Notes under the pieces: model-generated
What the model saw: only the letters and a program-made list of their open reading frames with translations
What the model was told of the DNA's origin: nothing
The model's database searches: none
Translations under genes and position numbers: made by a program
DNA from: an uncultured Thermococci archaeon
GTDB lineage: Archaea; CAYQAE01; CAYVLA01
Direction: 5' to 3'
Length of the DNA: 64,000 nucleotides
NCBI GenBank assembly: GCA_964549615.1
Contig: CAZJVP010000051.1
Location: 32,001-96,000, forward strand
Part shown: in pieces, positions 6,061 through 18,143 of the stretch
Position numbering within the stretch: the stretch's first letter is position 1
Layout of the letters: each line of letters opens with the position of its first letter

Positions 6061-6157
6061 TGGGCCCGCGGGGAATTGAACCCCGGACCTTTGCCTGGTG
6101 GTACGACCACCATCCGGTTATCAGCCGAACGCTCTAACCAAGCTGAGCCACGGGCCC
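6061..6157 (-). tRNA. tRNA-Ile(GAU) with 22-nt non-canonical insertion (~6093..6114) at the 3' side of the anticodon stem
   Basis: GGGCCCG/CGGGCCC acceptor stem, GCTC/GAGC D-stem, TTCGG-CTGATAA-CCG, T-arm CGGGG-TTCAATT-CCCCG. The insertion contains a perfect TGGTGGT/ACCACCA hairpin. Confidence 0.9.
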
Positions 6158-6280
6158 TTTGCCCTTTGCGCCCGGCTACGGTTGAGCCAATAAAAATATC
6201 TCTAGGGCCAGCCGTCCATGGCGGTTCGAAAAAGTCCCATCCTAGGTCGGGGCCCCGCCAGGTGGCAAGCTCGGGGAATA

Positions 6281-6289
6281 GCTATAAGT
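6281..6289 (+). promoter_or_regulatory. Putative TATA box for apt
   Basis: CTATAAG about 30-35 nt upstream of ATG 6319. Confidence 0.4.
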
Positions 6290-6318
6290 CCGACGGCATA
6301 CCTCGGACAGGTGCGACC

Positions 6319-6849
6319 ATGAAGGCCGAGGACGTTAAACGTGCCATTCGAACGGTGCCCAACTTCCCAAAGAAAGGGGTCATGTTCAGGGACATAACCA
6401 CCTTGGTGAAGGACTACAAGACCTTCAGGTATGCGATAAAGAAGCTTGCCAGCATGTTCCTGGATGACGACATAGACGTGGTCGTTGGGATAGAGTCCCG
6501 CGGTTTCATCATCGGCGCCCCGCTCGCCCTGGAACTTTGCGCGGGCTTCGTTCCCGTCCGCAAGCCTGGCAAGCTGCCGTACAAGACCGTCAGGAAGGAG
6601 TACCGAACGGAGTACAGCCTGGACTCGGTGGAGATGCACGTCGACGCCATCAAACCCGGCCAGAGAGTTCTGATGGTCGACGATCTGATCGCCACCGGGG
6701 GCACGATGAAGGCGGCCATAGACCTCGTCGAGCAGCTGAAGGGCCAGGTCGTCGGAGTGGCGTTCGTCGTCGATCTGCCCGAGCTTCACGGAAAGGAGAA
6801 GCTCAAGGGCTACAGGGTCGTGAGCCTTGTCGAGTTCGAAGGGGAGTAG
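6319..6849 (+). CDS. apt: Adenine phosphoribosyltransferase
   Basis: IRTVPNFPKKGVMFRDIT, GIESRGF, RKPGKLP, and PRPP motif VDDLIATGGT. Confidence 0.95.
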   Translation: MKAEDVKRAIRTVPNFPKKGVMFRDITTLVKDYKTFRYAIKKLASMFLDDDIDVVVGIESRGFIIGAPLALELCAGFVPVRKPGKLPYKTVRKEYRTEYSLDSVEMHVDAIKPGQRVLMVDDLIATGGTMKAAIDLVEQLKGQVVGVAFVVDLPELHGKEKLKGYRVVSLVEFEGE

Positions 6850-6865
6850 CGCTCAGCAGGTGCCA

Positions 6866-6872
6866 TTTAAGA
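6866..6872 (+). promoter_or_regulatory. TATA box of tRNA-Ala
   Basis: TTTAAGA about 26-32 nt upstream of the tRNA 5' end. Confidence 0.6.
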
Positions 6873-6897
6873 AATGGCCGGAGTCACTTGGCTCGAT

Positions 6898-7027
6898 GGG
6901 CCGATAGCTCAGCCTGGCAGAGCACCGCCTTTGGGAAGGCAGGTTTGCTTCTCGGCGAGCGCAAGGCGGGGGCCGCGGGACAGGCACGATGTCTCGGCCT
7001 GCGCGAATTCAACTCCCGCTCGGTCCA
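6898..7027 (+). tRNA. tRNA-Ala(CGC) with two introns (33/34: 6932..6959; 53/54: 6980..7007)
   Basis: Acceptor stem GGGCCGA/TCGGTCC has the G3-U70 Ala identity pair. Both introns have perfect 4-bp central helices (CGCC/GGCG; CGCG/CGCG) with 3-nt bulges. The spliced product is a 74-nt cloverleaf. Confidence 0.9.
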
Positions 7028-7138
7028 TCCTTCTTCCACCGGGGTCTCGGGGCTGAACGATGCGGCCATGCCAAAGACCATTGCGCCCACATTGCTCAGC
7101 ACCCGAGCCTACACCCAGGCGCGACTGCCCAGTTGGCC

Positions 7139-15151: not shown

Positions 15152-15161
15152 GTATAAAAAT
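15152..15161 (-). promoter_or_regulatory. TATA box of tRNA-Pro (possibly also driving FAU-1)
   Basis: Minus-strand TTTTTATAC about 35 nt upstream of the tRNA 5' end. Confidence 0.6.
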
Positions 15162-15397
15162 TCTATCATGGGCAGGCCTTCAGGGCGGATTTCACCTTCC
15201 TTGGTCGATGCTGCCCTGCTGAGCATGCCTTCGCGAAGGACATGCCATCTCATAGCCGTCAGGTTGGGCACCAACGACCTGGCTGGGCATTTGTGGGGCT
15301 CGCGCGTGGCCTCTTGAGATCGCGGAAGCGGAGGAGCGATTTATCAACGCTCGGTCGGCCTAATCGACAGTTCCTCACATTCATCTTCGGTGATGCC

Positions 15398-15790
15398 GTG
15401 GCCATCTACCAGGGTAAGTCCGGAAGGAAGAGCACGGGCGGAAGGTACAAGCCCCACCACAAGAAGCGTCGGTTCGAGCTGGGCAGGTTCCCGGCTGAGA
15501 CGCGGATAGGGGAAAGGAAGCTGCGGATCATAAGGACCAGGGGGGGCAACATCAAGCAGAGGCTGATGGCCTCACAGTTCGCCAACCTCGTGGAATCCCC
15601 GGGCCAGAAGGCGAGGCTGGTCAAGATCCTCACCGTGAAGGACAATCCCGCCAGCCGGGATTTCACAAGGAGGAACATCATCACGAAGGGAGCCATAATC
15701 GAGACGGAGGCCGGGCTGGCCCGCGTGACGTCCCGGCCCGGGCAGGACGGCGTGGTGAACGCCGTCAAGGTTGAAGCGAAAAACGCCTAG
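15398..15790 (+). CDS. rps8e: 30S ribosomal protein S8e
   Basis: [49 protein letters not shown] start after a GGTGA ribosome-binding site. Confidence 0.97.
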
Positions 15791-16680
15791 GGTCTTATCC
15801 CCAGCTCGTCGATGGTCAACAGCGGCATCAGCTCGATCCCGAACTTTGACCTCAACAGCTCGGCTGCGCCCTCCTTTCTGTCCACAACGCAGGTTACCCT
15901 GACGACCCTGGCCCCCGCTGCCTGGATCGTCTCCACGCAACCCACCAGGGACCCTCCTGTGGTCGCAACATCATCGATCAGGAGCACCCTGTCTCCCTTG
16001 CCCATCTCCCCCTCCACCCGCTGCTGGGTGCCATGGGCCCTCTCGCCCTTCCTTATCATCGCGTAGGGCAGGTTTCCCCTCATCGCTACAGCGACGACCA
16101 GGGGTACGGCGCCAAGCTCGGGCCCCGCGACCATGTCGATATCCTTGAGGTAGAGTGCTTCGATGAGCCTGGAAACGAGTGAAAGAGTCCGGGGGCGTGT
16201 GATTATCCTCTTCATGTTCAGATAGTAGGTGCTCTTTCTACCTGAGGTCAGGGTGAAATCGCCGAACAAGAGGGCGTCCTGCCTCGTGATTCGTATCAGC
16301 TCCTCCTTGAGTTCATCCACGCCCAGAATTTCGTACTCGTCGTAGCAGGAGGTATATCCTTTGTGGCACGCGGGCCCGGCCTGCTCGACATCCAGCAGAA
16401 TCGAGTCTCCGTCGCAGTCGATCTTCAGACCCTTGAGGGCCTGCGTCGACCCGCTTTCCTCTCCCTTCACCCACAGTTTCCGCCTGCTCGTGCTCCAGTA
16501 GGTCACCTTTCCGGTGGTCAGGGTTGCGAGGACGGCCGCCCTGTCCATGTAGGCCTGCATGAGGATTTGGCCGGTTGCCCAATCTCGAGCGATCGCTACC
16601 ACAAGATCATTTTCCGCCAGCCTGCGCTTGAAATCGAGCCTTTCGAGCACCTTGTTGGCTTCCTGCGTGGAAAGCTTCAT
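15787..16680 (-). CDS. Fusion of phosphoribosyl-AMP cyclohydrolase (HisI) and orotate phosphoribosyltransferase (PyrE)
   Basis: N-terminal half has [22 protein letters not shown] and [11 protein letters not shown]-terminal half has [22 protein letters not shown] and [10 protein letters not shown]. One continuous frame. Confidence 0.9.
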
Positions 16681-16897
16681 TGTCCCGCCTTTGCCGACAG
16701 GATGATTTAACGCTTTTCGACCTCGAGCTGGTCGCGTTCTAAAGATCTGCCTGCGTCTTCTCCCTAAGGCGGATCTGGCGAAATGCGAAAGGAATGATCT
16801 CTGCTTCGGCCCTGGCGCCTTCACAGTTAAGAGACGCGTTGCGTGACACGGATCGTTGGCTTGCTCTAATCGCGATCTTGGTGGAAGTCATCATGCA

Positions 16898-17887
16898 ATG
16901 CTGGGGTGGATTTCGGCCCGGTTGAAGCGGAGGAAGTCCAAGATCGCTGTGGCTCTGATCTTGATCGTGCTGATCGGACCGTTTCTCGTTCCGGTACCGC
17001 CCCTCAAAGACACGGTCCCTCCGCTAGAGCTTGCCGATCCAGACAGTCTCTTCGCGGATGTGAACGGGATATCGGTGCACTACAAGATGCGCGGCAGCGG
17101 CAAGCCCGCCATCGTACTGCTCCACGGCTTCGGCGCCAGCCTCTTTTCATGGAGGGAAGTCCTTCTTCCCCTTGCGCAGAACCACACGGTGGTTGCATTC
17201 GACAGGCCTGCCTTCGGCCTCACGGAGAGACCGCTTCGTGGGGATTGGGTCGGCGAGAACCCATACACCGCTGAGGCCCAGGTCAGGTTAACTTTTTCCC
17301 TCATGGACAGGCTGGGTATCGAGAAGGCTGTGATCGTAGGACACTCAGCAGGAAGTGCGATTGCTCTCTTAGCTGCCTTGGAGTTCCCGGCTAGGGTGCA
17401 GGCCCTAGTGTTGGTGGATCCCGCCTTGGGGTCGGGGCATGGGGGCTCCTTGATCCGCGCGCTCTGCAGCGTGCCCCAGATCCGACGTCTGGCTCCTCTG
17501 TTCGTGCGATCCATCCGGAGCTGGGGCAAGAGGATTCTCGTGCGGTCCTGGCATAACTCGTCGCGCATAACTGAAGAGATAATGGCTGGATATACGAAGC
17601 CTCTCCGCGCAAAAGACTGGGATCTGGGGCTCCTGGAGTTCGCGCTTGCAGCAAGGCCCACCAAGATCAGAGAGAAGCTTTCGTCCATCGCCCTGCCGGT
17701 CCTGGTAGTCACGGGAGACGACGATCGCGTGGTGGCGCCGGAGGAGAGTGCCCGCCTGGCGCAGGAGATGCCCAATGCCAGGTTGGCCGTGATTCCGCGT
17801 TGTGGCCATATCCCTCAAGAGGAATGTCCCCTCGCTTTCCTTGAGGCGGTGCAAGACTTCCTGCGGCGGCTGCCGTGCGTGCCATGA
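16898..17887 (+). CDS. Membrane-anchored alpha/beta hydrolase
   Basis: LLHGFG, GHSAG nucleophile elbow, GDDD and GH catalytic residues; N-terminal TM. Confidence 0.9.
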   Translation: MLGWISARLKRRKSKIAVALILIVLIGPFLVPVPPLKDTVPPLELADPDSLFADVNGISVHYKMRGSGKPAIVLLHGFGASLFSWREVLLPLAQNHTVVAFDRPAFGLTERPLRGDWVGENPYTAEAQVRLTFSLMDRLGIEKAVIVGHSAGSAIALLAALEFPARVQALVLVDPALGSGHGGSLIRALCSVPQIRRLAPLFVRSIRSWGKRILVRSWHNSSRITEEIMAGYTKPLRAKDWDLGLLEFALAARPTKIREKLSSIALPVLVVTGDDDRVVAPEESARLAQEMPNARLAVIPRCGHIPQEECPLAFLEAVQDFLRRLPCVP

Positions 17888-18013
17888 GATCCCGAAATCG
17901 CTCGACGGTTTGGTTCGCGGGATGTAACGGGCTTAACCACGGAGAGTCGTTCTGTGGGATCCCTACGTCTTCATGGGCGGGGTCCGGCTCGGGTAGGCAG
18001 GAACTGAACTCTG

Positions 18014-18026
18014 GAAAAATTTAAAT
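18014..18026 (+). promoter_or_regulatory. BRE + TATA box of tRNA-Phe
   Basis: GAAAAA-TTTAAAT about 25-35 nt upstream of the tRNA. Confidence 0.7.
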
Positions 18027-18050
18027 CAAATTCTGCCCCGGCCTAGCTAG

Positions 18051-18143
18051 GCCGAGGTAGCTCAGAGGGAGAGCGCCGGACTGAAGGCCTTCGAACAGGG
18101 GTCCGACATCCGGGTGTCGCGAGTTCGATTCTCGCCCTCGGCA
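18051..18143 (+). tRNA. tRNA-Phe(GAA) with canonical 37/38 intron (18087..18107, 21 nt)
   Basis: GCCGAGG/CCTCGGC acceptor stem, CCGGA-CTGAAG[intron]A-TCCGG, T-arm GCGAG-TTCGATT-CTCGC. Confidence 0.93.

Follow-up and report, generated by a model that had tools for sequence, protein, structure and literature searches.

Interrupted tRNA genes at the locus

The stretch of DNA considered here ('the window') comprises the 64,000 nucleotides (nt) from position 32,001 to position 96,000 of contig CAZJVP010000051.1, in the genome assembly GCA_964549615.1 of an uncultured Thermococci archaeon. The genome that carries it is referred to below as G000 and the window as G000:C51:32001-96000, and all features of the window are numbered within it. 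The window contains four transfer RNA (tRNA) genes, those for isoleucine (Ile-GAT), alanine (Ala-CGC), proline (Pro-TGG) and phenylalanine (Phe-GAA), and all four are interrupted, by seven insertions in total. An earlier note on this DNA had claimed that every tRNA gene in the window is interrupted, that six of the seven insertions occupy non-canonical sites, that three are exactly 28 nt long and that no gene encodes the terminal CCA; the coordinates, sites, lengths and flanks given below bear this out. Scans of the whole genome found no fifth tRNA gene within the window.

The standard programs see only part of this set. With default settings ARAGORN detected two of the four genes and wrongly named the phenylalanine gene Leu(aag), and the Rfam tRNA model, applied at its gathering score, also found two. 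When the Rfam model was run at an E-value threshold on positions 5000-20000, a third gene appeared at 6898-7027 with 34.0 bits, against a cut-off of 29 bits; its alignment contains two large local insertions, with ~31 nt in place of the anticodon loop and ~35 nt in place of the T-loop. Pro-TGG (15118..14993, minus strand) was missed by both programs and was recovered by an acceptor-stem scan, in which paired acceptor strands are sought beside a T-stem. The acceptor stem of this gene is perfect and is composed of seven G:C pairs. A T-arm-like motif with a stem of 5 base pairs (bp) and the loop TTCAAAG also occurs near position 32011 of the window (C51:64011, plus strand); it has no complementary acceptor strand within 330 nt and was taken as a chance occurrence.

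tRNA-Ile(GAT) occupies 6061..6157 on the minus strand (Rfam, 58.8 bits), with its discriminator base at 6061, and is read as Ile(gat) by ARAGORN both unspliced and after in-silico removal of the insertion. tRNA-Ala(CGC), at 6898..7027 on the plus strand, carries the pair G3:U70; ARAGORN with its -i option miscalls the unspliced gene as Pro(tgg), and the gene spliced in silico is read as Ala(cgc). tRNA-Pro(TGG), at 14993..15118 on the minus strand, has three introns and is known from the acceptor-stem scan and the parser described below; ARAGORN reads Pro(tgg) only once all three have been removed. tRNA-Phe(GAA), at 18051..18143 on the plus strand (Rfam, 60.7 bits), is called Leu(aag) without splicing and Phe(gaa) after in-silico removal of its insertion. 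Past the discriminator the 3' flanks of the four genes are CGT, TCC, CAC and CTC, so CCA is not encoded in any of them.

An A/T-rich, TATA-like box, recognized by eye, lies 20-45 nt upstream of each of the four genes. These boxes are at 6187..6200 before tRNA-Ile (minus strand, ~30-43 nt upstream), at 6864-6877 before tRNA-Ala (plus strand), at 15151-15166 before tRNA-Pro (minus strand) and at 18014-18032 before tRNA-Phe (plus strand). In a genome of ~60% guanine plus cytosine (G+C) they are putative promoters. The D-stem has an odd feature common to all three tRNA-Pro genes of the genome (window 14993-15118, minus strand; G000:C67:4-94; G000:C88:77581-77691), which have T opposite T at 13:22 and G:T at 10:25.

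Sites of insertion and splicing motifs

The insertions were placed with a cloverleaf parser that fixes the acceptor stem first and, with this in place, fits each of the D, anticodon and T arms with at most one insertion. Splicing motifs, whose strict form is hBHBh' and whose relaxed form is HBh', were scored by three numbers, namely the pairs in a 4-bp central helix between two 3-nt bulges, then the consecutive outer pairs and then the consecutive inner pairs. At the canonical site, 37/38, there is only the 21-nt intron of tRNA-Phe (18087-18107, plus strand; motif 3,5,4). tRNA-Ala has one intron of 28 nt at 33/34 (6932-6959, plus strand; motif 4,1,6, the single best of 17 offsets) and another of 28 nt at 53/54, the junction of the T-stem with the T-loop (6980-7007, plus strand; motif 4,0,5). 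The three introns of tRNA-Pro are of 11 nt at 22/23, in the 3' strand of the D-stem (15083-15093, minus strand; motif 4,1,1), of 12 nt at 33/34 (15060-15071, minus strand; motif 4,3,1, the best of 17 offsets) and of 28 nt at 59/60, in the T-loop (15007-15034, minus strand; motif 4,5,2). Lastly, an insertion of 22 nt in tRNA-Ile lies at 43/44, where the anticodon stem meets the variable loop (6091-6112, minus strand; motif 2,0,6). A bulge-helix-bulge-like motif is present at six of the seven sites, that of tRNA-Ile being relaxed and weak.

A parser that took no account of the motif arrived, for both Ala introns, Pro 33/34 and Phe 37/38, at the offset with the best motif among the 17 tried. The motif is therefore an independent confirmation of these four introns, because a parser guided by the cloverleaf alone chose the same offset. 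The boundary of Pro 22/23 is good to ~1 nt, since the automatic parser favoured a 12-nt variant displaced by one base; splicing as given here yields a D-arm equal in length and layout to the one that Pro-GGG, a paralogue, carries without interruption. The equal length of the three 28-nt introns (Ala 33/34, Ala 53/54 and Pro 59/60) looks coincidental, as the longest word that they share is 7 nt and the two Ala introns vary in length among relatives.

Conservation among relatives

The phylum-level group to which G000 belongs has five species in the genome collection used here. Four of them are members of one family, G000 itself, G002 (of the same genus), G003 and G004, and the fifth, G001, represents another family of the same class. 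Comparison of intron positions with these relatives shows that the Ile, Ala and Pro orthologues of G002-G004 carry insertions at sites identical to those of G000. Exons and insertions have diverged very differently. Among three genomes 74 of the 75 exon columns of tRNA-Ile are invariant, against 10 of 24 intron columns; in tRNA-Ala, aligned over the four family genomes, the corresponding figures are 69 of 74 exon columns and 23 of 61 columns for both introns, and in tRNA-Pro, again over four genomes, they are 71 of 75 and 30 of 51.

The Ala and Ile inserts also differ in length among the family genomes, the intron at Ala 33/34 being present in G002, G003 and G004 with differing lengths. The position of the Ala 53/54 intron is kept in all four, as are the introns at Pro 22/23 and Pro 33/34; the four bases of the Pro 22/23 intron that pair with the exon are invariant, and conservation of exon-pairing intron bases is seen among the family genomes more generally. 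At Pro 59/60 both site and length are identical in all four genomes, and an intron of 16 nt occupies Phe 37/38 in G004. The hairpin at Ile 43/44 is preserved by way of paired changes (G004).

Of the 31 anticodons for which G000 and G004 can both be resolved, 28 agree in the number of insertions and in their offset within the arm, with Leu-CAA, Ser-CGA and Ser-GGA differing or uncertain; omitted from this comparison are two entries of G004, a Val-TAC that was parsed wrongly and an unusual gene of class-II-like form. As the sites are shared across the family genomes, the intron set must be older than the split of at least three genera. In G001, outside the family, 17 of 26 parsed tRNA genes are interrupted (4 of 30 hits could not be parsed), and some of the insertions, with good motifs, fall in D-arms, anticodon stems or variable regions.

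Another peculiarity of G004 is a class-II-like tRNA, present in two copies (G004:C45:5931-6035 and G004:C15:2231-2334), with a long variable arm and a Ser- or Leu-like body. With GAA in its anticodon loop it is named Phe by ARAGORN; an identical flank of 13 nt follows the two copies, and no orthologue was found in G000. It could be a recoding tRNA or one belonging to a mobile element.

The tRNA complement of the genome

G000 comprises 3,213,799 bases in 104 contigs, with 59.9% G+C, and is estimated to be 99.5% complete with 2.81% contamination. Genome-wide, the Rfam model finds 35 tRNA genes, seven of 72-75 nt, four of 83-85 nt and 24 that are longer. A wider scan began with a numpy pre-filter that required T8, C61 and an acceptor stem of 7 bp and gave 46,778 candidates; a T-arm filter tolerating an insertion in the loop kept 277 of these for scoring with the parser. 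Every known gene was recovered at a score of at least 69.5, together with seven new ones. Gln-CTG, Gln-TTG, Trp-CCA and Ser-GCT have three introns each, one of those of Trp-CCA being 56 nt long at 37/38, and Gly-GCC, Pro-CGG and His-GTG have two each. A scan filtered on the D-arm and another seeded on the T-arm, with one acceptor mismatch allowed, gave nothing further convincing. Brute-force parsing of acceptor-stem candidates was dropped as too permissive, with 276 passing and 1,818 parsed.

The resulting census contains 43 tRNA genes, of which 32 (74%) are interrupted, with ~51 introns of 11-56 nt, or ~1.2 per gene. There are no introns in 11 genes, one in 18, two in nine and three in five. 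The canonical site holds 14 introns, and the 37 found elsewhere are distributed between the D-arm (14), the anticodon arm at positions other than 37/38 (nine), 43/44 or the variable arm (six) and the T-arm (eight, five of them at 59/60 and three at 53/54). Besides Pro-TGG, the genes with an intron at 59/60 are four in number. The suggestion of the earlier note that the tRNA complement of this lineage is heavily disrupted thus extends to the whole genome; with 32 of 43 genes interrupted, the remaining tRNAs are not mostly intron-free. Such introns may also, as that note proposes, mask tRNA integration sites from mobile elements. A single gene defeated the parser. It lies on contig C55 and was parsed as Glu-CTC, because two introns are present in one arm; splicing it by hand at 30/31 and 37/38 gives Leu-TAG, which is also the reading of ARAGORN.

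Once spliced in silico, all 43 genes are recognized by ARAGORN with the anticodon predicted by the parser, the mis-splice of C55 as Glu-CTC included, and so are the versions of Pro and Ile spliced by hand. Without splicing, Rfam finds 35 of the 43 and misses eight, and ARAGORN -i also finds 35, assigning 12 of them an anticodon that differs from the parse. As standard annotation fails to this extent, conclusions on completeness or codon usage that are based on tRNA would be wrong for such genomes. Motifs are abundant: of the 52 insertions called by the parser, 36 form all four central pairs, and in 33 of these the helix is accompanied by three or more flanking pairs, compared with 2.1% and 0.3%, respectively, of 200,000 random genomic places of equal lengths.

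The possibility that the introns are copies of one element was considered and rejected, an all-against-all comparison of the 52 introns with blastn-short yielding only words of 7-8 nt, with E-values of at least 0.08. Lacking similarity to each other within the genome, the introns therefore show no sign of recent copying. CCA is encoded in six of the 43 genes, Met-CAT (on contig C79), Gly-CCC, Leu-GAG, Glu-CTC, Leu-CAG and Tyr-GTA, and is absent from the other 37. The 56-nt intron at 37/38 of tRNA-Trp(CCA), a gene located at G000:C43:6549-6718(-) with D-arm and 59/60 introns as well, is the longest in the genome. In other Euryarchaeota the intron of tRNA-Trp encodes a C/D-box guide RNA.

Introns, retained insertions or pseudogenes

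The gene structures, the motifs and their conservation, like the enzyme genes discussed below, are direct observations. Taken together they make it highly probable that these are functional archaeal tRNA genes with protein-spliced introns of the bulge-helix-bulge type. A number of points weigh against this reading. RNA runs covering positions 6000-15999 of the window were looked for, and none was listed. At Ile 43/44 only two of the four central pairs form, next to an inner hairpin of 6 bp (shift +2). Several D-arm insertions score weakly (3,0,0; 2,2,1; 2,2,2), and D-arm boundaries are good to ~1-2 nt. The figure of 33 motifs in 52 insertions is inflated, because genome-wide the parser picks boundaries partly by the motif, and the parser leaves no room for a second insertion in an arm or for any in the acceptor stem. 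Three expected tRNAs, Asn-GTT, Ala-GGC and a third CAT, were not found by Rfam or by the three scans, in which scores of ~70 or below look like noise, and tRNA-Asn is without a match among the Rfam hits of G004 too. Splitting, permutation, an intron in the acceptor stem or a gap in the assembly may explain their absence; the search, which was not designed for split or permuted tRNAs, turned up none.

Some of the insertions, chiefly the hairpin at Ile 43/44 and the small inserts in D-arms, might instead be retained in the mature tRNA as structural expansions. Such retention is suggested by the incomplete central helix of Ile 43/44 and by the weak motif scores at several D-arm inserts, and the paired changes by which the 6-bp Ile hairpin is held across genomes would fit a retained extra arm too. 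However, tRNA-Ile is a class I tRNA, and the 11 nt between its hairpin and the T-stem are unlike a class II variable arm. Removal of the 22 nt leaves a standard variable loop of 5 nt, which ARAGORN accepts. The 43/44 site, moreover, is shared with Met-CAT, Lys-CTT and Tyr-GTA, in each of which three of the four central pairs form and the inner helices are long, and insert columns are far more variable than exon columns. We consider it improbable that any of the insertions is kept in this way.

The genome is assembled in 104 contigs, two tRNA genes lie at contig ends and three expected anticodons are missing, all of which would suit interrupted genes that are decaying pseudogenes of working copies left unassembled. 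This would be hard to reconcile with the remaining evidence. Every anticodon found is single-copy in G000 save for two CAT genes; the exons are near-invariant across three genera while the introns drift; acceptor stems and T-arms are intact, with TATA-like boxes before all four window genes; and G004 repeats the same architecture. Decay of these genes is very unlikely indeed.

Lineage of the host

In its archaeal elongation factor 2 (EF-2) this genome comes closest to sequences at 76-92% identity. Among named groups the best matches, at 62-66%, are with Methanofastidiosa, Theionarchaea, Methanothermobacter and Thermococcus, and names from TACK or Asgard are absent among the 120 matches listed. 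By this marker the host does not belong to Thermoproteales, whose intron-rich tRNA sets the earlier note cites, or to TACK. The same-genus relative G002 is publicly labelled Candidatus Hadarchaeota. The EF-2 relatives and this label together point to a lineage of euryarchaeal grade that would be allied, by label, to Hadarchaeota and not to Thermoproteales, and independent acquisition of the disrupted tRNA set is plausible. In the explanation that we judge best overall, this is in all probability a small euryarchaeal-grade lineage, the ancestor of whose family had its intron set already fixed.

Two splicing endonucleases

The earlier note had also anticipated an unusual architecture of the splicing endonuclease EndA, and the genome turns out to have two such genes, one for a three-unit protein like that of ARMAN-2 and one for a fused two-unit protein with a loop of crenarchaeal type. 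Both were found by their Pfam EndA domains, as open reading frames each containing more than one unit. Genes for RtcB and for the archaeal CCA-adding enzyme are present as well.

The first EndA, of 403 amino acids (contig C90), is colinear with the epsilon2 enzyme of ARMAN-2 (PDB 4fz2), residues 29-403 aligning to 22-387 with E=2e-73. Two matches to the Pfam N-domain, one complete match to the catalytic domain and one partial match to the latter lie in it, and it has the three units of the epsilon type in a single chain, N-terminal alpha-like, catalytic alpha and C-terminal beta-like; epsilon2 enzymes are defined as chains of ~390 amino acids that form homodimers of broad substrate specificity. 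Tyr, His and Lys lie opposite Y236, H251 and K282 of 4fz2, and another Lys lies opposite K161 of the ASL (L2) loop; the roles of these residues in 4fz2 are described in PMC6379350. Its relatives form 15 clusters at 64-85% identity. The next, at no more than 47%, are in Aenigmatarchaeota and, in genome records, Micrarchaeota, with DPANN identity at 35-47%. In a quick tree, rooted at the midpoint without an outgroup, the 16 epsilon-type sequences of the clade form one long and fully supported branch outside 48 DPANN sequences. Given this placement outside all 48 in the quick tree, a recent transfer of the gene from a DPANN group was set aside as improbable.

The second EndA, of 393 amino acids (1456-2637, minus strand, of a segment of contig C88), has a structural and a catalytic unit fused in a single open reading frame. 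Residues 216-376 align to the alpha subunit of Aeropyrum pernix (3p1z_B) with E=2.4e-43, ungapped across the loop and with a Lys opposite K44; the Crenarchaea-specific loop and the role of K44 are treated in PMC6379350 and PMC5829648. The catalytic Tyr-His-Lys triad is kept in the C-terminal unit. The N-terminal unit is without the Tyr and the His and matches the structural subunit 3iey_B weakly (E=0.012). Residues 103-374 align to the two-unit chains of the A. fulgidus type, 3p1y_A, 1r0v_A and 2gjw_A, and the layout, with the structural unit N-terminal and the catalytic unit C-terminal, is that of the alpha'2 enzymes; these are defined as being without a loop insertion and as narrow in specificity, whereas the loop and its lysine are present here. 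The protein also resembles the (alpha-beta)2 type but is not a member of it by architecture, because both units are in one chain and not in the separate alpha and beta subunits of a heterotetramer, a fusion seen again in G002 (380 amino acids) and G004 (387 amino acids). In a near-length search its close relatives form 19 clusters at 60-85% identity, all of them in the clade, and the next matches are at 29-41%. Residues 1-45 of the fused protein (G000:C88) form an acidic tail rich in Glu and Asp that is absent from the aligned solved EndA chains.

Could one of the two genes have come from a co-binned contaminant, a DPANN cell for example, so that the dual-enzyme picture is an artefact of binning? 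The estimated contamination of 2.81% and the identity of the nearest epsilon-type relatives outside the clade (Aenigmatarchaeota and Micrarchaeota) would allow it. However, both genes are on large contigs of typical composition, of 81,417 bases (60.2% G+C) and 89,867 bases (59.9%), compared with a genome mean of 60.1% and a standard deviation of 0.9%. Both are present in all four family genomes, the epsilon type at 66-76% identity, and the 16 clade sequences stand on their own branch outside the DPANN sequences of the quick tree. A contaminant origin is scarcely credible, and both genes are taken to belong to the host.

In the sister family the position is simpler. The only EndA found in G001 is an alpha4-like protein of 190 amino acids (1474-2046, minus strand, of a segment of G001:C7) without insertions relative to the alpha4 enzyme of M. 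jannaschii (1a79), although a beta subunit too divergent for the Pfam search may have been overlooked.

Processing of the interrupted precursors

We infer splicing itself, together with transcription, cleavage, ligation and the matching of enzymes to sites, from the genes and motifs described above. Each gene would be transcribed from its own promoter. In the precursor, the ends of the intron would lie in 3-nt bulges that flank a 4-bp helix formed between the intron and the neighbouring exon. EndA would cleave both bulges, the exons would be joined by RtcB, and the 3' end would be supplied by the CCA-adding enzyme.

Both endonucleases are very probably of kinds that accept relaxed motifs at non-canonical sites. 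How they might share the work can be proposed only tentatively. Two broad-specificity endonucleases may act side by side, dividing the intron sites between them or co-assembling, and both may have permitted the spread of introns to the D-arm, 43/44 and the T-loop; this is possible but far from assured. It is also conceivable, though we would not presume it, that one endonuclease alone splices tRNA and that its partner is redundant or serves chiefly for something else, such as the processing of ribosomal RNA (rRNA) precursors. Archaeal EndA is known to process rRNA precursors as well (PMC7714728, PMC10515664), and G001 handles non-canonical introns with a single alpha4-like enzyme. On the other hand, both EndA proteins keep the Tyr-His-Lys triad and the loop lysine that is associated with relaxed-motif cleavage, which would be consistent with both cutting such sites, and both genes are retained in all four family genomes. 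The case of G001 also counts against the overall explanation: as non-canonical introns occur there with an alpha4-like enzyme only, special enzymes are not strictly needed at every non-canonical site.

Should two broad-specificity enzymes indeed operate side by side, this lineage would offer a natural test of the co-evolution of endonuclease loops and intron diversity, in an archaeon with a genome of free-living size. The contrast between the family, with its two enzymes, and the sister family of G001, with a plain alpha4-like enzyme and 17 of 26 genes interrupted, makes the co-evolution model testable.

Comparison with known systems

In the accepted picture, non-canonical introns are tied to one broad-specificity endonuclease per lineage, the (alpha-beta)2 type in TACK and Asgard, epsilon2 in Micrarchaeota, and an alpha4 enzyme bearing a loop in other DPANN and in Hadesarchaea. 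By contrast, two enzymes of different origin are found here in every genome of the family, alongside ~1.2 introns per gene. The tRNA introns belong, as new members, to a class already known; the novelty lies in the host lineage and in the dual enzyme complement. In the texts available, a literature search brought up neither an epsilon-type enzyme from outside DPANN nor a genome with two EndA types, nor any description of the tRNA introns of this lineage; supplements may hold wider surveys. The related Hadesarchaea have been catalogued in part, with different enzymes (PMC5829648).

Candidatus Micrarchaeum acidiphilum ARMAN-2 (PMC3239211, PMC3488258), which has many disrupted tRNA genes, is the source of the epsilon2 enzyme, the closest described counterpart of the 403-residue protein; the latter is a full-length homologue in which the triad and the ASL lysine are kept. 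The epsilon2 type was reported only from Micrarchaeum and later Mancarchaeum (Kaneta et al. 2018, PMC5829648). G000 and ARMAN-2 both have introns in D-arm, anticodon stem and T-loop, including 59/60. Disrupted tRNA genes make up 56% of the total in ARMAN-2 and up to 87% in archaea with (alpha-beta)2 enzymes (Fujishima et al. 2011, PMC3239211); in G000, where a second EndA coexists with the epsilon type, the proportion is 74% (32 of 43). ARMAN-2 is ultrasmall, with a genome of ~1 megabase, unlike the 3.2 megabases and 60% G+C of G000, which lies outside DPANN. The epsilon-type protein is likewise set apart from those of DPANN by its identity of 35-47% to them and by its separate long branch.

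The tRNA sets of Thermoproteales are intron-rich, and G000 resembles them in having several introns per gene, non-canonical sites and relaxed motifs. With the crenarchaeal (alpha-beta)2 enzymes the 393-residue protein shares a catalytic unit that has the Crenarchaea-specific loop and its lysine (PMC6379350, PMC5829648). TACK and Asgard enzymes keep this loop, L1, whereas those of DPANN are without it (PMC5829648). Unlike the crenarchaeal enzymes, the units are fused in one chain, and by EF-2 the host is not a member of TACK. Another likeness, judged from its description, is to Korarchaeum cryptofilum, whose two-unit EndA has a catalytic unit that roots among the (alpha-beta)2 enzymes (PMC3239211). 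There too a single two-unit chain with a crenarchaeal-type catalytic unit occurs in a host with non-canonical and multiple introns; unlike that system, an epsilon-type enzyme coexists with the fused protein here, and the close relatives of the latter are confined to the clade.

A 2026 preprint on some Asgard archaea (bioRxiv 10.64898/2026.10.13.758758) describes a comparable situation as regards the introns. Interrupted tRNA genes are in the majority there, with many insertions, above all those in the D-arm, overlooked by standard annotators; the boundaries are of bulge-helix-bulge type and copying between introns was undetected. The enzymes differ, the Asgard genomes being reported with two paralogues consistent with (alpha-beta)2 and not with an epsilon type.

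Like Hadesarchaea, this group is of euryarchaeal grade ('Stygia') and has many disrupted tRNA genes (PMC5829648). In Hadesarchaea YNP_N21 markedly more disrupted tRNA genes accompany an alpha4 EndA with the L3 loop (PMC5829648). The Hadarchaeota label of the same-genus relative and the single alpha4-like EndA of the sister family are further points of likeness. Unlike Hadesarchaea, however, the family of G000, within its phylum-level group of five species, has an epsilon-type enzyme and a fused, loop-bearing enzyme in place of alpha4.

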